Shown: one piece after another, positions 1,239 to 25,076 of the stretch
How the letters are laid out: each line of letters opens with the position of its first letter
Numbering within the stretch: the stretch's first letter is position 1
Position numbers and translations under genes: made by a program
NCBI RefSeq assembly: GCF_000734015.1
Contig: NZ_CP008796.1
Location: forward strand, 1-32,000
Length of the DNA: 32,000 nucleotides
DNA from: Thermodesulfobacterium commune DSM 2178
GTDB lineage: Bacteria; Desulfobacterota; Thermodesulfobacteria; Thermodesulfobacteriales; Thermodesulfobacteriaceae
Direction of reading: 5' to 3'
Notes under the pieces: generated by a model
What the model saw: only the letters and a program-made list of their open reading frames with translations
Database searches by the model: none
What the model was told of the DNA's origin: nothing

Positions 1239-2144
1239 ATGCCAAAGGTTGGGGTTTATGTATGTCATTGTGGTGAGAACATTAAAGGTGGGCTTAATAT
1301 CCAGGAGTTGGTAGAGTTTGCCAAAACATTGCCTGATGTGACAGTAGTGAGAGATTATTTCTTCATGTGTTCTGACCCTGGGCAGGAGTTGATCAAGAAT
1401 GATATTAAAGAGGGTTTAGTTGACAGGGTGGTAGTTGCTGCTTGTACTCCAAGAACTCATGAGCCTATTTTTAGGGCAGCGGTAGAGTCAGCAGGTTTAA
1501 ACAAGTATTTTTGTGAAATAGCTAACATAAGAGACCAGAATACCTGGGCTCACTGGGGGAAGATTAAAGAGGCTACAGACAAGGCTAAAAGGATCATAAA
1601 AAGCGCGGTAGCTAAGGTAAGATTGGCTGAACCTTTAGAAGACCGTTTTGAACCTATGGAAAAGTCTGTTTTGGTGGTAGGTGGTGGAATTGCAGGTATG
1701 TTTGCTGCTTTAGACTTAGCTAACATGGGTTTAAAGGTTTATCTGGTAGAGAAAAGGCCTTCTATAGGCGGGAACATGGCTATGCTTGACAAAACGTTCC
1801 CGACTATGGACTGTTCGGCTTGAATACTCACCCCCAAGATGGGCGAGGTCGCCCAGCATCCTAACATCGAACTTATCACCTATGCCGAGGTAGAAGATGT
1901 TAAGGGTTATGTAGGTAACTTTGAAGTTACCATAAGAAAAAAAGCCAGGTATGTAGACTGGGATAAGTGTACAGGTTGTGGTCACTGTATGAACATTTGT
2001 CCTTCCAAGGCTCCAAACGAGTTTAACCTTGGTCTGGATAAGAGACCGGCTATTTATATACAATTTCCTCAGGCAGTGCCGAAGTTTCAGGAGGTAATGA
2101 AGCAGACAGCGTTAGCAGAGGTAGCACCGTTTCCACTTGACTAA
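1239..2144 (+). CDS. hdrA: Heterodisulfide reductase subunit A-like flavoprotein with an in-frame TGA (Sec) at 1821-1823. Only ~301 codons, so the C-terminal half of a normal HdrA is missing.
   Basis: RBS AAGGGGG lies upstream. Motifs present: N-terminal VCHCGENI Cys domain, FAD fingerprint VVGGGIAG, conserved block LDKTFPTMDCSA-[TGA]-ILTPKM, inserted ferredoxin CTGCGHCMNICP, then FPQAVP. ORF-track pieces 1239..1823 and 1839..2144 share one frame. HdrA-like sequence ends near 2081 and TAA is at 2142-2144. Confidence 0.8.
1840..1855 (+). promoter_or_regulatory. Putative bacterial SECIS hairpin for the hdrA UGA
   Basis: UGGGCG-AGGU-CGCCCA, a 6 bp GC-rich stem starting 16 nt after the UGA. The loop and closing base read GGUC. 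Confidence 0.55.
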
Positions 2145-2162: not shown

Positions 2163-3065
2163 ATGAAGAGGGTAGGATTGTTTTTAGGATGTAACATACC
2201 GTTGAGGAGGCCGGATATAGAGTATTCGATGAGGTATTTGTTGAAGGAGTTGGGGGTGGAGGTAGTGGATTTAGAGGGAGCGACATGTTGTCCGGCGTTT
2301 GGGACGATGCCATCGGTGGATTTAGTGGGGTGGTGTGTGGGATCAGCGTGGAACATGGCGATAGCAGAGGGTAAGGGATTAGAGGTGATGGTAACGGGGT
2401 GTGGTAGTTGTTATGGGAGTTTGAATGAGGCGAGATATCACATGGAGAAGCATCCTGAGATAAAGGAGAAGGTTAACGAGATACTGGGAAGTGTGGGTAT
2501 GAGGTATGAGGGGAAGGTGAAGGTGTACAACATATACAATTATATATATGATTTTATTGGGTTAGAGGAGTTGAGGAAGGCGGTGAAGTATCCGTTGAAT
2601 GGGATGGTATGTGGGGTGCAGGTAGGGTGTCACAATTTATGGCCGAGCAAGGCGTATCCGGCGAATGATGAGAATACGTTTCAGCCGAGGAGGTTGAGGG
2701 AGATATGTGAGGCGTTAGGAGGGGTAGCGCCGTGGTATAGCATGATGACAGATTGTTGTGGTATGGGTGCGTTGGGTAGTTTAGCGAGGGACAAGTCTTG
2801 GAGTTTGTTTAAGAAGAAGGCGAGTAAGATGATAGAGGAGATAAATCCTGAGGTATTTGTGACGGGGTGTAGTAGTTGTTTGTTGAGGTTTGACAACGAT
2901 CAGGCTCAGATGAAGAAGGAGGGGGTAATAGATTTTGAGGTACCGGCGGTGCATGTGGCGCAGTTGGTTGCGTTGGCGTTGGGGGCGGAGCCGGAGAAGG
3001 CGGTAGGTTTGGCAGAGGTGCCAGTAGACAAGGTGGTAGAAAAAATAAGAGCAGGAGGTAAGTGA
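2163..3065 (+). CDS. hdrB: HdrB-like protein with two CCG (Cys-rich) domains
   Basis: Strong RBS AAAGGAGGG. First domain: LGC ... ATCCPAFG ... TGCGSC. Second domain: VGCHN ... TDCCGMG ... TGCSSC. Confidence 0.85.
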   Translation: MKRVGLFLGCNIPLRRPDIEYSMRYLLKELGVEVVDLEGATCCPAFGTMPSVDLVGWCVGSAWNMAIAEGKGLEVMVTGCGSCYGSLNEARYHMEKHPEIKEKVNEILGSVGMRYEGKVKVYNIYNYIYDFIGLEELRKAVKYPLNGMVCGVQVGCHNLWPSKAYPANDENTFQPRRLREICEALGGVAPWYSMMTDCCGMGALGSLARDKSWSLFKKKASKMIEEINPEVFVTGCSSCLLRFDNDQAQMKKEGVIDFEVPAVHVAQLVALALGAEPEKAVGLAEVPVDKVVEKIRAGGK

Positions 3066-3066
3066 T

Positions 3067-3477
3067 ATGAGTTGGGAGCCAAAGATAGTGGTTATAGCTT
3101 GTAACTGGTGTACCTATGCTGCGGCAGACCTGGCAGGTAGTTTAAGATATAGTTATCCACCTACAGCATATATAGTAAGGGTTCCCTGTAGTGGTAGGGT
3201 AGAGCCTGAGTTTATAGTAGAGGCTTTAAAAACAGGAGCAGACGCTGTGTTAGTGGGTGGCTGACCTCCTGGGGACTGTCATTACCGGTCAGGTAATTAC
3301 AAGGCATTGAGGCGTTTTAAGCTTTTGAAGAGGGTGTTAGAGGAGTTGGGAGTGGAAGGAGACAGGGTGAGGCTTGAGTGGATATCAGGTAGTGAGGGTA
3401 AGAAGTTTGCGGACATAATAACGGAGATGGATGCCAAGGTAAGGGAACTAGGACCAAATCCAATGAAGGGGGTATAG
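3067..3477 (+). CDS. mvhD: Mvh hydrogenase delta subunit (MvhD) with an in-frame TGA (Sec) at 3262-3264
   Basis: RBS AGGAGG. N-terminus IVVIACNWCTYAAADLAG, then VPCSGR. The conserved G-C-x-x-G-D-C-H-Y block reads G-G-[TGA]-P-P-G-D-C-H-Y. The frame continues to TAG at 3475-3477. Confidence 0.85.
3278..3300 (+). promoter_or_regulatory. Putative bacterial SECIS hairpin for the mvhD UGA
   Basis: GU-C-AUUACC / GGUCA loop / GGUAAU-U-AC, starting 13 nt after the UGA. Confidence 0.55.
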
Positions 3478-3480
3478 GAG

Positions 3481-4437
3481 ATGAGTAAGCCTAAGTTAGC
3501 ATATTACCTGGCAGGAGGATGTGCAGGTTGTGATATAAGTTTGGTAGATTTAGCTGATTTTTTGGTGGATGTGGTTAGTGCGGTGGACATAGTGTTTTTT
3601 GCGCCTACACTTGTGGATGTGAAGTATAAGGATTTTGAGGCATTGCCAGATGGGTCGGTGGATGTGGGTTTGTTGACAGGTAACATAAGGAACAAGGAAC
3701 ATGAGCATATGGCGAAGGTGATGAGGGCGAAGTGTAAGGTGTTGATAGCGTATGGTATATGTGCGAGTTTAGGTGGTATCAAGGGTTTGGTTAATTTGTA
3801 TAGTAATCAGGAGTTGTTGGAGAAGGCGTATAGGGATACGTTTAGTACAGACAATCCTACAGGGGAGTTACCGAGTCCCAAGTATGTGGTAGATGGGAAG
3901 TATGAGTTGGAGTTGCCGGAGTTGACGGAGGCCAGAACGTTGGATCAGGTGGTGGAGGTGGATTATTACATAGGAGGGTGTCCGCCGCATTATGAGCATG
4001 TGAAGGCGGCGTTGGTTGCGTTGTTAGAGGGTAAGTTACCGCCGAGGGGTAGTTGGATAACGATGGGGCATGCGGTGTGTGAGGTATGTTCGAGGAACCC
4101 TGTGTTGAGGGGGGAGAAGAAGAAGCCTGTATTAGAGGTTAGGAGGGTGATAGAAGGGGGAGTAGAGGAGGAGGCATGTTTGCTTGAGGCGGGGTATTTG
4201 TGTTTAGGTCCTGTTACACAGGGAGACTGTGGAGCGAGTTGTTTGAAGGTGAACGTGCCGTGTAGGGGATGTGGAGGGCCGATACCAGGGGTAAGGGATT
4301 ATGGTTTGAGGGCGATAAGTGCGATAGCGAGTGCATTGGAAAACGAGGAGTTGGTAGACAGGATAGAGGACCCTGTGAGGTTGTTTTACCGGTATAGTTT
4401 GCCAGGGTCTATGATAGGGAAGAGGCTTGGAAAGTAG
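3481..4437 (+). CDS. mvhG: [NiFe]-hydrogenase small subunit, Mvh type (MvhG)
   Basis: N-terminal GGCAGCDIS motif, further Cys clusters (GGCPPH, CEVCS, CxGPVTQGDCGASC, PCRGCGGP), and its position between mvhD and mvhA. Confidence 0.9.
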   Translation: MSKPKLAYYLAGGCAGCDISLVDLADFLVDVVSAVDIVFFAPTLVDVKYKDFEALPDGSVDVGLLTGNIRNKEHEHMAKVMRAKCKVLIAYGICASLGGIKGLVNLYSNQELLEKAYRDTFSTDNPTGELPSPKYVVDGKYELELPELTEARTLDQVVEVDYYIGGCPPHYEHVKAALVALLEGKLPPRGSWITMGHAVCEVCSRNPVLRGEKKKPVLEVRRVIEGGVEEEACLLEAGYLCLGPVTQGDCGASCLKVNVPCRGCGGPIPGVRDYGLRAISAIASALENEELVDRIEDPVRLFYRYSLPGSMIGKRLGK

Positions 4438-4472: not shown

Positions 4473-5936
4473 ATGCAGAGGATAGAGATAAATCCCATGA
4501 CAAGGCTTGAGGGTCATGGGAAGATAACGATATTTTTGGATGACAAGGGTAATGTAGACAATGCCTTTTTACAGGTAGTAGAGTTTATGGGATATGAGAA
4601 GTTTTTGATAGGTATGCCTATAGAGGAGGTGCCAAGGACAGTAAGCACGATCTGTGGCGTCTGAAGGGGTGTACATTTTATGGCCTCGTTGAAGGCCGCA
4701 GATGAGGTATATGGGGTAAAGCCTACGGAGACGGCGAGGAAGTTGAGGGAGTTGTTTTATTATGCGCATTATGTAGAGGACCACATGGAGATCATATATG
4801 CGTTGGGGTTGCCTGATTTTGTTTGTGGGCCTACGGCATCTCCAGCAGAGAGGAACTTGGTTGGGTTGATTATGAAGGTGGGAGTTGATGTAGGAAGAGA
4901 TGTTTTGAAGAAGAGATTTGCTGCTGTTAGGATCTTTGAGATCCTTGGAGGAAGGCCAAGCCATCCAGTGGCAGCGATACCCGGGGGATGGAGCAAGAGG
5001 CTGAAGGAGGAGGAAAGGCAGGAGATACTGAGGTATGCGGATGAGTGTGTGGAGTTAGCGAAGTTTACGCTTAAGGCGTTTAAGGATTTGGTGTTAAGTA
5101 ATCCTCAGTATGTGGAGTTGATAAAGGGGGACATTTACAAGGTGGTAACGAATTATTTGGGAACGGTGGATGAGGCTGGGAAGGTAACCTATTATGATGG
5201 TACACAGGTGTTTGTGGACACGAAGGGTAATGAGATAGGTAGGTTTAGTGGTAAGGAGTATTTGGAGTGGATAGCAGAGAGGACGTTGCCGTGGAGTTAT
5301 CAGAAGGCACCGTACATTAAGAAGTTAGGTTGGAAGGGGATAGTGGATGGAGAGGGAACGAGTTTATACAGTGTGGGGCCGCTAGCGAGGTTTAACGTGG
5401 GGAATGGATTTGACACACCTGGTGCGCAGGAGGCGTATGAGGAGATGGTAGAGTTTTTTGGAGGGAAGCCTGTGCATAACATACTGGGTTATCACTGGGC
5501 GAGGGCGATAGAGTTGTTGCATTGTGCGGAGAAGGTGAAGGAGCTTGCGTCAGACGAGAGTATCACAGCTCCTGATGTGAGGCAGGAGTTAGGTGAGGCA
5601 TTAGGAGAGGGAGTAGGGATTGTTGAGGCAGCGAGAGGAACGCTTATCCATCATTACAAGACAGACAGTAAGGGTATAGTAACTGACGCAAACATCATAG
5701 TTGCGACCACCCACAACAAAGGGCCTATGAATATAGCGATCAAGAGGGCGGCAGAGAATTTTATCAAGGAAGGAAAGGTAGATGAGGGAATTTTGAACCT
5801 GGTAGAGATAGCTTACAGGCCCTATGACCTTTGTTTTGCCTGTTCTACTCACACCTTACCTGGGAAGTTGCCTGTGCAGATAGACATCTACACCAAGGAC
5901 GGAGAGCTGGTAAAAAGTTTGAGAAACTTTAAATAA
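4473..5936 (+). CDS. mvhA: [NiFe]-hydrogenase large subunit, Mvh type, with an in-frame TGA (Sec) at 4662-4664 inside the N-terminal nickel-binding motif
   Basis: RBS GAGGAGGGG. N-terminus INPMTRLEGHGKI. The RxCGxCxxxH motif reads T-I-C-G-V-[TGA]-R-G-V-H. ORF-track pieces 4473..4664 and 4680..5936 share one frame. The C-terminal motif is DLCFACSTH plus a cleavable tail. Confidence 0.85.
4681..4698 (+). promoter_or_regulatory. Possible SECIS hairpin for the mvhA UGA
   Basis: UGGCCU-CGUUGA-AGGCCG, 5 GC pairs plus one U-G pair, starting 16 nt after the UGA. The loop contains GU but not GGUC. Confidence 0.4.
5039..5936 (+). repeat. Direct repeat copy B (3' part of mvhA), partner at 1..898
   Basis: See copy A. 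Ten of the 15 differences are synonymous and five change residues (G/A, S/P, I/M, M/I, L/F). Confidence 0.95.
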
Positions 5937-8819: not shown

Positions 8820-9326
8820 ATGTTTAGAGAAGAGGTTTTTCATCTATTTTTGGTTGAGGCAAGCACCCCTGAGTTAGCCTTCTCTCAGGTGGTAAAGTTT
8901 CTTTCAACCTATCAGTTAGTAAGATATGATGAATTTAAGGTTCTTGAAAAAGAAACCTTAGGTTTAAGAGACCCTGATTTTTGGCAAGCCTTAGAAAAAG
9001 GAATCACAAAAAATTTGGAAGTCTTAAAAGGGTTTATACAAGATTTAAATCAGGAAGGCTATGTTAGTATAAGAGATCTTTTGTTTCTTCCTCAAGGTTA
9101 TCTTAGTAAGATATTTCATCTGATAGCTCATCTTCTGGACGGGTTTTTTGGGATAGATTCTTATTTTTATAACCTGGTTGAAGACTCTCATTTTATAAGT
9201 CCTCAACTAAGGCAAAAGCTCAAAAAAGAGGAAACAGGCTATTTTCTGGTCCCAGTTAAAGCTTATTTTGACGAAAAAATCTATTCTTTTGAAACTATAT
9301 CACCTAAGAAATTTTTTAAAATTTAG
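8820..9326 (+). CDS. Hypothetical protein, 168 aa, no family recognised
   Basis: Long ORF with RBS-like AAGAGG upstream and a hairpin terminator downstream. I could find no recognisable motif. Confidence 0.5.
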   Translation: MFREEVFHLFLVEASTPELAFSQVVKFLSTYQLVRYDEFKVLEKETLGLRDPDFWQALEKGITKNLEVLKGFIQDLNQEGYVSIRDLLFLPQGYLSKIFHLIAHLLDGFFGIDSYFYNLVEDSHFISPQLRQKLKKEETGYFLVPVKAYFDEKIYSFETISPKKFFKI

Positions 9327-9361: not shown

Positions 9362-9393
9362 CCAGGAGAGGTATTTCTAAGAACCTCTCCTGG
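9362..9393 (+). terminator. Hairpin terminator between convergent genes
   Basis: Perfect 10 bp stem CCAGGAGAGG / CCTCTCCTGG with a 12 nt loop, followed by AAGTTTAGTTTTTT. Confidence 0.5.
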
Positions 9394-9405: not shown

Positions 9406-10776
9406 TTAGTCCTTAGGTTCTATTTTGTATTTTCCCTTTTCAAAACTCACGTTAGCGTTGAGATAATAGGCCTTAAACCCTGCTCTTTTTAATATGTTAT
9501 AAGCCATTTCAGCCCTAATACCTGTTGCACAATGAATAATGATGGTTTTGTCCTTAGGAATTTCGTTTAATCTTTTTTCAAGTTCTCCCAAGGGGATGTT
9601 TACCGCATGGGGGAAGCTACCTTCTTGAGTTTCGTTTACTTCTCTTACGTCAAGGATGAAGTAGTTAGCAGGTAGGGTAGGAGATTTAAGTAGTTTTTTA
9701 AACTCTTCCACAGAGAAGGTGCCAGGCCTGGGTTTATGAACATAAACTATCTTAGAGGAGGGTTTCCCTACTTCAACCTTACCTCCTGCTTTTTTCCAGG
9801 ACTCTAATCCACCAGGAATGTAGGCTATGTTGGTGTATCCCCAGTTTTTAATGATATCGATAGCTGATAAAGCTCTTTCGTCTTTTTCATCATAAACGAA
9901 GATGGGAGCGTTTTTCTGTTTAGGAAATTGCTTTTTAGCAGCTTTAAGTTTTTCAAGAGGAAGGTTTACTGCCCCAGGTATGTAGCCTTTTTCTGCCAAG
10001 GTCTTAGGCCTCAGGTCTATAAGCACAAAAGATACTCCCTGAGAAATTTCTGAAAGGATGTGTTGAGGTTCTACTGCTACAGGGAGGCCTGCTTTTTTCC
10101 AGGCAGGTATACCTTCTACAAAGCCTTTAACGTTGGTATATCCAAGAGAAGCGGCCACACTGACCGCCGCAGGGGTTAACGCTCAGCGTGGACCTTCACA
10201 ATATACCACAGCTAAAGCTTGCTTATCTTTCAAGACTTCAGGTAGTTTCTTCCCAAACTGAGCCAAAGGAAGGTTGATAGCCCCAGGTATATGTCCTTCA
10301 GCATACTTGGCAGGAGGTCTAACATCTATGATTAACGCTGACTTTTGTTCTACCAGTTTTTTAACCTCTTCTAAACCTATAGTTTTTTCTGCCGGGACCT
10401 TAACCGGAGGTTTTACTGCTATGATAGAGGCATATCTTTTACCGTCTTTTTCTGTATAGACAACCTTTATAGGGGTGCCTTTGTTAAGTTTGTTTAAAGG
10501 TTGGTCCCAGTAAAGCACCTTTACCTTGTCGTCAAAAAACACGTCAAGACTTTGACCGGTATCAAGTTGAAGAAGCCCTGCTTTTTGAGAAATGGAAATA
10601 AGATTACCCCAAAGTTCATTAGGGGCTGAAACTTTGTGACACCCAGGTTGAACACATGAAGGAAGAGCCTGTTTGATCCCTGGCTCTCCTGGAGCAGAAG
10701 TCATCTCCTTTATCCCTATACTTAAACTAAAAAATAAAGAGGAGACTCCTAAGGCTACCAGATACTTTTTGTTCAT
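9406..10776 (-). CDS. Secreted protein with three rhodanese domains and an in-frame TGA (Sec) at 10183-10185. Candidate selenoprotein sulfurtransferase, 456 aa.
   Basis: ORF-track pieces 10183..10776 and 9406..10158 share one frame across a single TGA. The TGA falls inside rhodanese domain 1: VVYCEGPR-[TGA]-ALTPAAVSVAASLGYTNVKGFVEGIPAWKKAGLPV. The downstream piece alone would start mid-domain. Domain 2 has no catalytic Cys (VYDEKDERA) and domain 3 has HCATGIRA. The N-terminus MNKKYLVALGVSSLFFSLSIG looks like a signal peptide. Confidence 0.7.
10151..10170 (-). promoter_or_regulatory. Putative bacterial SECIS hairpin for the rhodanese UGA
   Basis: The minus strand reads GCGGC-GGUCAGUGUG-GCCGC, starting 12 nt after the UGA. 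The loop begins with GGUC. Confidence 0.45.
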
Positions 10777-10813
10777 AAATCCCCCTTGGTGTTTTTTATG
10801 TTTATCTATAAAA

Positions 10814-10883: not shown

Positions 10884-12413
10884 CTATTCTTGCCAGAGGT
10901 TTTTTTCTAAACTGCGGTATTGGATGGCTTCTGTGATGTGATGTTTTAAGATAATCTCAGATTGTTCTAAATCAGCTATCGTTCTTGCTACCTTGAGTAT
11001 TTTGTGAATGGCCCTTGCAGAGAAACTAAATTTTTCTGCAGCTTTTTCCAAAAACTCCTGAGCCTTAGGTTCTAAGATACAGTATTTTTTGATTTCTTTA
11101 GATTTAAGCTTGGCGTTGGTTTTAAGTTGGGTTCCATAGCGTCTTTCTTGGATTTTTCTTGCAGCTAATACCCTTTCTTTTATTTCTGCTGAGCTAATCT
11201 GAGGTTTGTCTGAGGTTTTTAGTAGGGCCTTGTAGTCTACGGAGGGAACTTGTAAGTGGATGTCTATTCTATCAAGGATTGGGCCTGAGATTTTGTTTCT
11301 ATACTTTTTAACCTCCTGAAAGGTGCACTGACAGGGTTTGGTAGGGTGTCCGTAATAACCACATTTACAAGGATTCATCGCACAAACCAGCATAAACTTA
11401 GAAGGATAGGTTACGGTAAAGTTGGCTCTGGTTATGGTAACCTGTCCGTCTTCTAAAGGTTGTCTGAGGGCCTCTATCACATCTTTTCTAAACTCGGGAA
11501 ACTCGTCAAGAAAAAGCACCCCGTTATGGGCTAAGCTTACCTCTCCTGGTTTAGGATGAGTTCCTCCTCCTATCATCCCAGCCTCAGAGATACCAAAATG
11601 GGGATTTCTAAAAGGACGATGGTTGATAAAAGGTTTTTCAGGGGTTAATAGGCCTGCTACCGAGTAGATCTTGGTGGTTTCAAGTGCCTCTTGATAGGTA
11701 AGAGGAGGGAGTATGGTAGGGAGCCTCTGGGCAAGCATGGTTTTTCCTGCACCAGGTGGCCCTATCATCAACACGTTGTGCCCACCTGCCGCGGCTACCT
11801 CAAGGGCTCTTTTAGCCATCTCCTGACCAAATATTTCTGAGAAATCCTCTTCTAACCTTAGTACCTCAAGGTCAACCTCTTTTTTCGGATGTAAAGGCAC
11901 AGTTCCTTCTCTTAGGTAATCAACCACCTCTCTTAGATGGGTTACTCCTACCACCTTAAAATCACGCACCAGAGAAGCTTCTAAATAGTTATCCAGAGGC
12001 AACACAATCTCGCAAAACCCTAACTCTTTAGCCTTTAACACAGAGGGTAATATCCCTCTTGTACTCTTAACTGTTCCGTCAAGGGAAAGCTCTCCTAAAA
12101 AGGCTTTGTTAGCTAAGGCCTCCTTAGAGATTATTTCCATACCAGCCAGTATCCCCAAGGCCATCGCCAGATCAAAACCACTTCCTTCTTTTTTAAGGTC
12201 TGCAGGAGCCAGGTTTATGGTAATCTTTTTTTGGGGAAAACTAAAACCTGAGTTTTTTAAAGCAGACCTGATGCGTTCTCTACTTTCTTTGATAGAGCTG
12301 TCTGGAAGCCCTACGATGGTAATCCCTGGAAGGCCTCGCGAAAAATCTACCTCGATGTCTACAGGAAAGGCTTCGATACCTAAAACCGTAAAGCTTGAAA
12401 CCTTTACAAACAT
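10884..12413 (-). CDS. comM: YifB/ComM family Mg-chelatase-like AAA+ ATPase
   Basis: N-terminus MFVKVSSFTVLGIEAFPVDIEVD, Walker A GPPGAGKT, and a C-terminal ChlI-like region. The start is set at the second Met because the first Met (12431) lies inside the atpE terminator T-tract. Confidence 0.9.
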   Translation of the reverse strand: MFVKVSSFTVLGIEAFPVDIEVDFSRGLPGITIVGLPDSSIKESRERIRSALKNSGFSFPQKKITINLAPADLKKEGSGFDLAMALGILAGMEIISKEALANKAFLGELSLDGTVKSTRGILPSVLKAKELGFCEIVLPLDNYLEASLVRDFKVVGVTHLREVVDYLREGTVPLHPKKEVDLEVLRLEEDFSEIFGQEMAKRALEVAAAGGHNVLMIGPPGAGKTMLAQRLPTILPPLTYQEALETTKIYSVAGLLTPEKPFINHRPFRNPHFGISEAGMIGGGTHPKPGEVSLAHNGVLFLDEFPEFRKDVIEALRQPLEDGQVTITRANFTVTYPSKFMLVCAMNPCKCGYYGHPTKPCQCTFQEVKKYRNKISGPILDRIDIHLQVPSVDYKALLKTSDKPQISSAEIKERVLAARKIQERRYGTQLKTNAKLKSKEIKKYCILEPKAQEFLEKAAEKFSFSARAIHKILKVARTIADLEQSEIILKHHITEAIQYRSLEKNLWQE

Positions 12414-12421
12414 GTTTATCC

Positions 12422-12470
12422 TAAAAAACAAAAAAGAGGACCATAAGGTTTGGCCCTATGGTCCTCTTTT
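12422..12470 (-). terminator. Rho-independent terminator after atpE
   Basis: On the minus strand: GAGGACCATA / TATGGTCCTC stem with an 11 nt loop, followed by TTTTTTGTTTTTT. Confidence 0.7.
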
Positions 12471-23774: not shown

Positions 23775-25076
23775 ATGAAGGTAGCAAGATGGAAGGTTTT
23801 AGGTGTGGCAGGTGCTTTGGTTTTGGGCTATGCCGTTACCACTCAGGCTGCTCAGATCAAGGTGGATGAGGATACCTTTGCAGACTTTGGCTACAACATG
23901 AAGATCATGTATCAGAACTTTGATGAAAGAGGAAAGGGTGACCTTGACGATTGGAAAAAGAATGTTTTTGACATCAAGGATTCTCGTTTTTACATCTCCG
24001 GTCAGGTAAGCAAGATGGTTCAGTTCTATGGGGAGTGGAACGCATCAGGTGCTTATGGAAAAGAGACTTATGGATATGCTAAAGACAATAAGGTAGGTTT
24101 AGCAGAAGGTGGGGTTAACTTTGTGTTTATGCCTGAGCTTCAGGTAAGGGCTGGTAAGGTTAGGGTGCCTTTTACCAGGTATCAGATGACTTCATCCTAC
24201 AGCCTTATCATTCCTACCGACGCCTGGTATGATAAGGGTGGAGCAAATGCTACTGGAATCTTCAGTAAGGATACTGGTGTTGTTGGAGAAGGAAAATATA
24301 TCTCTACCAATCCTTTAGAGCTTATCGGCAGAGTCGATGGTGGTTTGATCGTGCATGGAGACATCGCAAACGGTATGTTTAGGTATAACGTGGGTGTGTT
24401 TAACGAGGATAAGAGAAAAGATGAGGCTTTTAAAGGGTTGCAGTGGGTTGCCAGGGTTGAGTTTACTCCGACTATGCTTGGGTTTGCCCCAGAGTCCACC
24501 ACCTCTCCTCACGGAAAGGTAAGCGACACCTACCTTGGTAAAAAAGACGTCCTTACCATAGGTTTGGGCTACTACAAAGAAAAATTGTATGATGAAGAAA
24601 ATACAACCTATAATGAAAGTTTAGAAGCTGATGGTTGGACCGCAGACCTTTTCTTTGAAAAGAAGTTTGGCTGTTGGGTGCCTAACCTTCAGCTTGGCTA
24701 CATCAAGTTAAACGATAGCCATTTTTATAACGAGACAAATGTATGGAAAAAAGGAGATACCAGTATCTGGTATGCTCAGGGACAGCTTCTCTATGATGCG
24801 GTGGTTGGTTTTGGAAAGCCAGCCCTTGCCATCAGGTATGAAAACGTAGAGGCAGATGGACAATATGACGCTGGAAATATCAAGAAAGACTTTGCCTTTG
24901 ACCGCTGGGGGGTTGCTTTCAACTACTATCTCAAAGGCCAGGCTGCAAGGGTGTCCCTTGGGTTTGACAAGGTAGAATACGACGACGCAGCTAAATTGTA
25001 TCTTGAGTCTCAAACCAAAACCAAAAAAGAAGACTCTATCACCGACTATTACCTCTACATCCAGACGATGTTCTAA
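23775..25076 (+). CDS. Outer-membrane beta-barrel porin, possibly phosphate-selective porin O/P-like
   Basis: RBS AAAGGAGG. Signal peptide MKVARWKVLGVAGALVLGYAVTTQA-AQ, an alternating aromatic/Gly-rich strand pattern, and a C-terminal ...YLYIQTMF ending in Phe. Confidence 0.7.
   Translation: MKVARWKVLGVAGALVLGYAVTTQAAQIKVDEDTFADFGYNMKIMYQNFDERGKGDLDDWKKNVFDIKDSRFYISGQVSKMVQFYGEWNASGAYGKETYGYAKDNKVGLAEGGVNFVFMPELQVRAGKVRVPFTRYQMTSSYSLIIPTDAWYDKGGANATGIFSKDTGVVGEGKYISTNPLELIGRVDGGLIVHGDIANGMFRYNVGVFNEDKRKDEAFKGLQWVARVEFTPTMLGFAPESTTSPHGKVSDTYLGKKDVLTIGLGYYKEKLYDEENTTYNESLEADGWTADLFFEKKFGCWVPNLQLGYIKLNDSHFYNETNVWKKGDTSIWYAQGQLLYDAVVGFGKPALAIRYENVEADGQYDAGNIKKDFAFDRWGVAFNYYLKGQAARVSLGFDKVEYDDAAKLYLESQTKTKKEDSITDYYLYIQTMF

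Follow-up and report, generated by a model that had tools for sequence, protein, structure and literature searches.

The window analysed here comprises 32,000 nucleotides of Thermodesulfobacterium commune DSM 2178 (contig NZ_CP008796.1, positions 1 to 32,000), and its minus strand carries, at 9406..10776, a rhodanese gene interrupted by a single in-frame TGA. That this is a real selenoprotein gene can be proposed with strong confidence, and it is very probable that the account holds as a whole: one gene, encoding a 456-residue exported selenoprotein, with the UGA in the loop of its first rhodanese domain and, downstream of it, a hairpin that is conserved with compensatory changes. The UGA (10185..10183) almost certainly encodes selenocysteine (Sec), because the homologs form a Sec/Cys column at this position, selection acts on both sides of the codon, the hairpin is conserved and other Sec genes are present in the window. 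On the strength of these sequence features, SelB-dependent Sec insertion at codon 198 is predicted with high confidence.

A single minus-strand frame leads from an ATG (10776..10774) to a TAA (9408..9406) and is broken only once; the open reading frames (ORFs) 10183..10776 and 9406..10158 share this frame, with only the TGA at 10185..10183 between them. Translation through the TGA yields 456 aa, in which Pfam Rhodanese is matched three times (E 1.7e-51), and the strongest of these stretches, at residues 136-229, extends over profile positions 3-102 of 102 and so includes the UGA codon. The codon lies in the context AVVY-C193(10200..10198)-E-G-P-R-[UGA198]-A-L-T-P-A-A-V-S-V-A-A-S-L-G-Y, and the 250-aa downstream ORF, in the form that gene callers give it, starts at a GTG within rhodanese domain 1. 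Both halves of the gene are under purifying selection: read in one frame against T. hveragerdense, the ratio of nonsynonymous to synonymous change (pN/pS) amounts to 0.08 for the part before the TGA and to 0.15 for the part after it. At the DNA level, T. thermophilum DSM 1276 has a counterpart with 97.7% identity.

Among 5.8 billion proteins searched, 1641 relatives were retrieved at E ≤ 1e-10, and the best of these are mostly single chains of 445-470 aa with an identical layout. In their alignment the UGA column is occupied by Cys, which is at least 90% conserved in full-length homologs and forms part of the motif Y-C-x-G-x-x-C-x-[LM]-[ST]-P; full-length Cys-form proteins with Y-C-x-G-x-x-C-x-[LM]-S-P number in the hundreds. 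The codon itself was read from DNA in a sample of loci, for which a scan of one genome per species provided 284 relatives; 80 were kept and 79 of these have the motif. Across these 79 loci, each from a different species and all in addition to the window, the codon is TGA in 64 and TGC or TGT in 15, and the motif common to both forms is Y-C-x-G-x-x-[U/C]-x-[LM]-[ST]-P. TGA forms are found in Thermodesulfobacterium and Caldimicrobium (Thermodesulfobacteriaceae), in Thermodesulfovibrio and other Nitrospirota, and in Desulfomonile, Syntrophaceae, Desulfarculaceae and Geobacteraceae, and Cys forms include Burkholderiales/Casimicrobiaceae and some Geobacter. The recurrence of the same TGA column in 64 species of several phyla excludes both a sequencing error and a strain-specific nonsense mutation.

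Downstream of the UGA, the transcript can form a hairpin that resembles a bacterial selenocysteine insertion sequence (SECIS) element. In the window this hairpin, GGCGGUCA-GUG-UGGCCGCU, has a folding energy of -10.9 kcal/mol, and none of 200 shuffles folds equally well. Its counterparts begin 14-17 nt after the UGA in every TGA form, and a gap-free alignment of 62 distinct sequences places the helix in columns 24-31 with 35-42, where standard pairs fill 79.8% of the cells compared with 33-46% for versions slid by 1-3 columns. Changes on both sides of a pair are seen in 39 cells, and none of 500 shuffles attains the observed values. The core pairs are retained in 57-62 of the 62 sequences, pair 27:39 occurs as CG (32), UA (16), UG (11) and GC (2), and the loop G in column 32 reaches at least 90% conservation. 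The mean local folding energy is -11.1 kcal/mol in Sec forms versus -6.2 kcal/mol in Cys forms (Mann-Whitney p 2.7e-6). Two Cys-form loci, L064 and L038, keep a strong hairpin at the SECIS position (UCCGCC-AGUCG-GGCGGA in L064), whereas the other Cys forms have lost it; these two hairpins suggest a recent conversion from Sec to Cys.

Three further Sec genes are located on the plus strand of the window, 5-9 kb from the rhodanese gene: an hdrA-like gene (1239..2144; UGA 1821..1823 in '...MDCSA-U-ILTPK'), an mvhD/FlpD gene (3067..3477; UGA 3262..3264 in 'LVGG-U-PPGDCHY') and the gene for the large subunit of a NiFe hydrogenase (4473..5936, Pfam NiFeSe_Hases; UGA 4662..4664 in 'TICGV-U-RGVH'). Each of the three UGAs is followed by a hairpin 16-17 nt downstream.

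A preliminary description of this DNA, made from the sequence alone, had proposed one gene with a Sec codon, which the Cys/TGA column, the selection on both halves and the hairpin now bear out. Its coordinates for two ORFs in one frame, broken by a single TGA, match the sequence; the TGA lies, as it had stated, in the middle of a rhodanese domain and five residues after the catalytic Cys (codon 198 falls within the Pfam stretch), the downstream ORF taken alone would indeed begin inside that domain, and the three Pfam matches agree with its portrayal of a triple-rhodanese protein. It had pointed to the homologs at the TGA column as a check, and these extend beyond the column, with Cys in the full-length database proteins of 445-470 aa and TGA or Cys codons in the sampled loci. 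The SECIS prediction that it had also named as a check gave the hairpin at 10150..10168 with its covariation and loop G, and the likeness that it saw to the hairpins of hdrA and mvhD has been confirmed by the comparable elements behind those UGAs. Regarding the structure of the hairpin it was right in part: a hairpin does follow the UGA, but the GCGGC/GCCGC register, a possible pairing at 12 nt from the UGA, is not the conserved structure, since the family pairs columns with i+j=66 and not 63 and the conserved helix begins 14 nt after the UGA.

The three rhodanese domains differ in their loops. In domain 1, the position of the catalytic Cys in canonical C-R-x-G-x-R rhodanese loops is taken by Cys193; the loop is shorter by one residue, and Sec198 replaces the Ser/Thr that follows the loop Arg. 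Domain 2 lacks Cys altogether. Domain 3 is the only one with the canonical active loop of six residues, C-x-x-G-x-[RT] (C416-A-T-G-I-R); its HC[AS]TGxRA loop is kept in nearly all loci, with at least 90% conservation of C416 and R421. An AlphaFold2 (AF2) model of a full-length Cys homolog, with a predicted local distance difference test score (pLDDT) of 89.4, arranges the three rhodanese domains behind a barrel. A Foldseek comparison of the whole model with the PDB retrieved generic multi-rhodanese proteins only (template modelling (TM) score ~0.2), and no informative global match.

The N-terminal part distinguishes this family from simpler rhodaneses. The homologs have typical signal peptides that end in A-x-A ahead of a conserved KP..C..CH segment, and from this sequence pattern the rhodanese selenoprotein is predicted, with high confidence, to be exported. 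Of 80 family members, 72 have a CxxCH or Cx4CH motif and the remainder are truncated or have a mis-called start; both Cys residues and the His are invariant in the family alignments. Covalent c-type heme attachment tolerates a spacing of either two or four residues in combination with an obligatory His, as in cytochromes c3, which is not expected of a CxxC redox or metal site. Like c-type cytochromes, the protein combines a putative export signal with a CxxCH-type motif of invariant Cys, Cys and His, and it is predicted with moderate confidence to bind a single c-type heme through C41/C46, His47 serving as a ligand. When the first 107 residues of the mature protein are modelled with AF2, the segment that follows forms a five-stranded barrel with a pLDDT above 90 over the barrel. 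In the PDB it is matched best by CusF, a periplasmic metallochaperone (2vb2/1zeq, TM 0.63-0.70 on the target), and by cold-shock oligonucleotide/oligosaccharide-binding (OB) folds; the modelled N-domain is an OB-fold barrel and not a class I cytochrome fold. At the sensitivity of a single-sequence search this domain is essentially confined to the family, and the matching proteins are either 440-470 aa or ~185-233 aa long, the latter being the length expected of truncation at the UGA. The preliminary description had noted the signal-like peptide and derived from it a periplasmic role similar to Sud; the peptide is indeed there, but the picture of a Sud-like carrier is incomplete, as it missed the heme-type motif and the OB-fold N-domain. 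The coordinates of all features of the gene are collected in Table 1.

Table 1. Coordinates of the rhodanese selenoprotein gene of T. commune and of its features within the window.
Feature	Positions	Strand	Basis
Selenoprotein gene, complete; 456 codons + TAA, one in-frame UGA read as Sec	9406..10776	minus	Translation, Pfam, homologs, pN/pS
Shine-Dalgarno-like AAGGGGG, 4 nt upstream of ATG 10776..10774	10781..10787	minus	Read off the sequence
Signal-like peptide, ~residues 1-24 (MNKK + hydrophobic stretch)	10705..10776	minus	Sequence; signal peptides of homologs
C41-V-Q-P-G-C46-H47, Cx4CH variant of the c-type heme attachment motif	10636..10656	minus	Family conservation
OB-fold beta-barrel (predicted), five-stranded, ~residues 54-121	10414..10617	minus	AF2 model, PDB structure matches
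Rhodanese domain 1, residues 136-229, C193-E-G-P-R-U198 loop	10090..10371	minus	Pfam best stretch; PDB alignments
TGT, Cys193, rhodanese catalytic-position Cys of domain 1	10198..10200	minus	Invariant in homolog alignment; PDB rhodanese alignments
UGA, Sec198	10183..10185	minus	Column TGA 64/79, TGC/TGT 15/79 related loci; Cys in nearly all full-length database homologs
SECIS-like hairpin, beginning 14 nt after the UGA	10150..10168	minus	Energy, shuffles, family covariation
Rhodanese domain 2, ~residues 240-336, catalytic position without Cys (IFVYDEKDE)	9769..10059	minus	Pfam/NCBIfam stretches, homolog alignment
Rhodanese domain 3, ~residues 357-440, loop H-C416-A-T-G-I-R-A, Cys codon 9529..9531	9457..9708	minus	NCBIfam stretches 357-439

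Rhodanese-related proteins have been listed among predicted bacterial selenoproteins, as the preliminary description had stated, and a 2026 review distinguishes five forms (PMC13188914). Form 1 (PF00581, UxxS) is exemplified in the reviews by WP_010941598.1 of Geobacter sulfurreducens and ascribed to a prediction by Zhang & Gladyshev in 2005 (PMC13188914, PMC9312934); forms 2 and 4 (UxxG) have Sec at the catalytic position, form 3 is the CxU type (NF041203), and form 5 is TsoB (UxxxxU), in which the rhodanese is fused to a DsbD-like electron transporter (PMC13188914). By its motif, the window family can most likely be equated with the 'rhodanese-like domain-containing selenoprotein form 1 (UxxS)'. 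Like form 1 it has a single Sec in a PF00581 domain, followed by U-A-L-T in the window and by U-x-[LM]-S in most relatives; members of the window family in the Geobacteraceae (locus L078) carry TGA, and a Cys-form relative, P0019, goes by a transferred name, 'sulfur transferase selenocysteine-containing protein'. As far as the two can be compared by description, they differ in that the reviews mention neither a heme motif nor an OB-fold N-domain, a three-domain layout or a Cys-x4-Sec pairing. No G. sulfurreducens entry appears among the listed matches of protein searches with the L078 product and with P0019, and no NCBIfam model names the window family. The earlier claim of a new selenoprotein is therefore doubtful, as the Sec context fits a form which, according to the reviews, was predicted in 2005, and the gene is probably an unannotated Thermodesulfobacterium ortholog of a long-predicted, uncharacterised selenoprotein rather than the founder of a new family. 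A literature search for a heme-rhodanese fusion, or for the heme motif, OB-fold or Cys-x4-Sec pairing of the family, found nothing relevant.

Several other known systems offer partial parallels. Among the NCBIfam models specific to selenoproteins, TsoB (NF045694; Haft & Tolstoy 2025) matches domain 1 best, through its rhodanese domain (residues 134-241, E 2.2e-19), and its two Sec residues share the x4 spacing of Cys193 and Sec198 and apparently occupy both positions of the same loop, which by analogy fits a redox-active pair at Cys193/Sec198. The window protein differs from TsoB in lacking the DsbD-like membrane domain and in having one Sec instead of two, and it adds the heme motif and two more rhodanese domains. 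It is not a member of the TsoB family, scoring 69 bits against a cut-off of 805 over the rhodanese part only and having one UGA. The LYCAU type (NF041203, CxU) likewise has one rhodanese domain with Sec near the catalytic-position Cys, and membership can be rejected here as well (66.7 bits, cut-off 115), the Sec being two residues after the Cys in LYCAU as opposed to C-x4-U in the window; the ExtH rhodanese-like lipoprotein (NF040901) was discarded at 15.9 bits against a cut-off of 200. Sud of Wolinella succinogenes (1qxn), a periplasmic protein of the rhodanese fold, deals with sulfane sulfur in anaerobic respiration and is related to domain 3 (E 3.8e-6), yet it forms a homodimer of single-domain subunits with one Cys and lacks Sec, heme motif and tandem domains. 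BH2092 of Bacillus halodurans (3nhv, 3o3w) is a solved rhodanese domain with a C-W-G-P-A-C loop that matches domain 1 (E 1.6e-9), but it is a Cys form with a single domain, a structural-genomics entry whose name carries no function. A functional analogy is provided by Geobacter, where experiments have shown that heme, Cys and an essential Sec of MccSep reduce polysulfide (PMC13510729). MccSep/ExtKL of G. sulfurreducens is periplasmic and combines c-type heme, a catalytic Cys and Sec for sulfur chemistry, in organisms of the same kinds as those with the window family; the likeness is one of function only, as MccSep is a five-heme cytochrome without rhodanese in which the Cys ligates the heme iron, and there is no kinship in sequence or fold (PMC13510729).

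A mechanism can be sketched from the domain layout and these analogies. SelB with Sec-tRNA(Sec) would bind the hairpin and insert Sec, in the same way as in the hdrA-like, mvhD and NiFe-hydrogenase genes. In the finished protein, domain 3 (C416-A-T-G-I-R) would be the classical persulfide-forming site, domain 2 would be catalytically dead, and domain 1 would contribute Cys193-x4-Sec198 as a redox pair. Domain 3 and/or Cys193 could take sulfane sulfur from polysulfide or thiosulfate in the form of a Cys persulfide, which would then be attacked by Sec198, freeing sulfide and leaving a Cys193-S-Se-Sec198 bond; Sec is both a better nucleophile and a better leaving group than Cys. The heme would pass electrons from the periplasmic cytochrome pool and thereby re-reduce the S-Se bond, so that the net activity would be that of a reductase of polysulfide- or thiosulfate-derived sulfane sulfur, with the reverse direction possible in sulfur oxidisers or in aerobes with the Cys form. 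Taken as a whole, from persulfide via Sec attack to re-reduction by heme, this scheme is a tentative one, with TsoB and MccSep as analogies. Bolder, and more doubtful still, is the idea of a previously unrecognised periplasmic sulfur oxidoreductase in which the OB-fold heme would trade electrons directly with the Cys-x4-Sec selenenylsulfide, either reducing captured sulfane sulfur to sulfide or oxidising sulfide, and in which Cys or Sec might lie close to the iron or even ligate it. If true, such a direct exchange between heme and selenenylsulfide would be the rhodanese-based counterpart of the heme/Cys/Sec chemistry of MccSep.

Among the alternatives, the one that survives best accepts the selenoprotein and concerns its function. 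It sees a non-redox periplasmic carrier of sulfane sulfur or selenium (as persulfide or perselenide) in the manner of Sud, with the CxxCH motif as a metal or structural site, and it is unlikely, though a serious contender. Such a carrier would agree with the rhodanese fold and the canonical loop of domain 3, with the detectable relationship of that domain to Sud, with a metallochaperone (CusF) as the best structural match of the N-domain, and with the fact that no distal heme ligand is evident; rhodanese is, moreover, reportedly able to carry selenium as perselenide, a finding attributed to Ogasawara et al. in 2001 (cited in PMC5877670). The C-(2 or 4)-C-H spacing with its invariant His, on the other hand, suits heme attachment, unlike a CxxC redox or metal site, a Sec beside a Cys is typical of redox pairs, and TsoB couples the same loop (UxxxxU) to a DsbD-like conduit for reductant.

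The two other alternatives concern the codon itself, and both are highly improbable. The UGA might be read through by near-cognate decoding with a standard amino acid such as Trp, Cys or Arg instead of Sec, for which one could cite the single relative with an Arg codon at this position (L081, see below) and the fact that the window contains no gene for the Sec machinery; the exchange across the 79 loci, however, is between UGA and Cys codons only, which is the signature of Sec/Cys replacement, the hairpin has the distance and loop G of a bacterial SECIS element and is conserved with the UGA (the Cys forms L064 and L038 also have strong ones), and canonical HdrA and MvhD Sec sites lie in the same window. 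A true stop, implying either two genes for products of 197 and 250 aa or a pseudogene caused by nonsense mutation or sequencing error, could appeal to the public annotation, which has exactly two proteins, and to the GTG at hand for the downstream ORF, but would be hard put to explain the TGA column in 64 species of several phyla, a downstream product beginning within a rhodanese domain, purifying selection on both halves in one frame, a conserved hairpin and the existence of the Cys-form homologs as single proteins of 450-470 aa.

It is important to point out that a number of observations weigh against the preferred reading, that of a Sec-containing, form 1-like, heme-bearing redox protein. 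At the level of decoding, when a longer segment is folded, the minimum free energy structure has the UGA itself paired with the region of the 3' arm, and alternative conformers exist. The relative L081, 67% identical and encoded on JGI metagenome contig Ga0370516_045332, has CGA (Arg) at the Sec column ('CEGPR-R-ALTPGAV'), which is either a very recent change from Sec to Arg or a sequencing or assembly variant; Sec may be dispensable in this protein, or the assembly may be in error. Genes for the Sec machinery (selA, selB, selC and selD) were sought within the window and none was found, and the machinery is inferred because three other genes with canonical Sec sites are present there. With respect to the heme, the CxxCH segment is disordered or of low confidence in the AF2 models, and the family alignment shows no evident conserved Met or second His that could act as a distal ligand. 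The case for identity with form 1 consists of the UxxS motif together with a product name that was transferred. Finally, all-against-all clustering of the flanking ORFs of the 80 loci detected no recurrent neighbours apart from housekeeping synteny at the level of clades, in no more than 10 loci; in the absence of a conserved neighbour, the function has to be argued from the protein itself and not from an operon. As for L081, its downstream hairpin, GGGGCUGUCC-GUA-GGGCAGCC, is still intact.

In public databases the gene is split. Two database proteins match the two ORFs of the window at 100% identity, WP_051754391.1 (197 aa) and a MULTISPECIES Thermodesulfobacterium entry of 250 aa, and each is named 'rhodanese-like domain-containing protein'; the RefSeq/GenBank division corresponds to window positions 10186..10776 and 9409..10158 on the minus strand and is also seen in T. 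hveragerdense and T. thermophilum. The split in RefSeq probably arose because no NCBIfam model names the family. Many metagenome entries of 185-233 aa resemble truncation at the UGA. The correction concerns a gene recorded as two meaningless fragments in Thermodesulfobacterium and, it seems, in many metagenome-assembled genomes, as a result of which both the selenoproteome and the periplasmic sulfur-handling proteins are under-counted. At least 64 species, from lineages that respire sulfate, thiosulfate and sulfur, have conserved the Sec form, and its layout (signal, heme-type motif, OB-fold, Cys-x4-Sec domain, dead domain and canonical rhodanese) makes it a candidate for periplasmic sulfane-sulfur redox chemistry, at a time when polysulfide reduction by heme, Cys and Sec has just been demonstrated in Geobacter (PMC13510729). 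To the earlier prediction of the family, the present analysis adds the breadth of the Sec-form clade, the SECIS register with its covariation, the module of heme-type motif and OB-fold, and a proposal for a redox mechanism.

Within the window, the rhodanese selenoprotein gene stands alone between its neighbours, a ComM/YifB-type Mg-chelatase-like ATPase gene on the same strand (10884..12431) and a convergent ORF of unknown function (8820..9326). A perfect 10-bp inverted repeat with a 12-nt loop, CCAGGAGAGG ... CCUCUCCUGG, is located at 9362..9393 between the rhodanese gene and the convergent ORF and is probably a terminator shared by the two; it has no T-run and was not flagged in the terminator scan. 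Neither the convergent ORF (plus strand, 168 aa) nor another at 23775..25076 (plus strand, 433 aa) matches Pfam at the thresholds that were applied. An Rfam scan of the window at gathering thresholds reported two tRNAs only, and no model for the rhodanese, hdrA or mvhD hairpins.

The other Sec genes of the window belong to a cluster with three Sec codons in 3 kb, which consists of the hdrA-like gene, a CCG-domain HdrB-like gene (2163..3065), mvhD/FlpD, and the genes for the small (3481..4437) and large (4473..5936) hydrogenase subunits, all on the plus strand. The hdrA-like product is a short flavin adenine dinucleotide (FAD)/4Fe-4S protein of 301 aa (TAA 2142..2144), far shorter than a typical HdrA. 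The hairpin of the hydrogenase gene, GGCCU-CGUUGA-AGGCC, begins 17 nt after the UGA. In the hydrogenase, the Sec is part of the N-terminal nickel-ligand motif in a CxxU form and the C-terminal motif is all-Cys ('DLCFACSTH'), the reverse of the arrangement in classical [NiFeSe] hydrogenases; a CxxU form has been mentioned for FrhA (PMC1976440).

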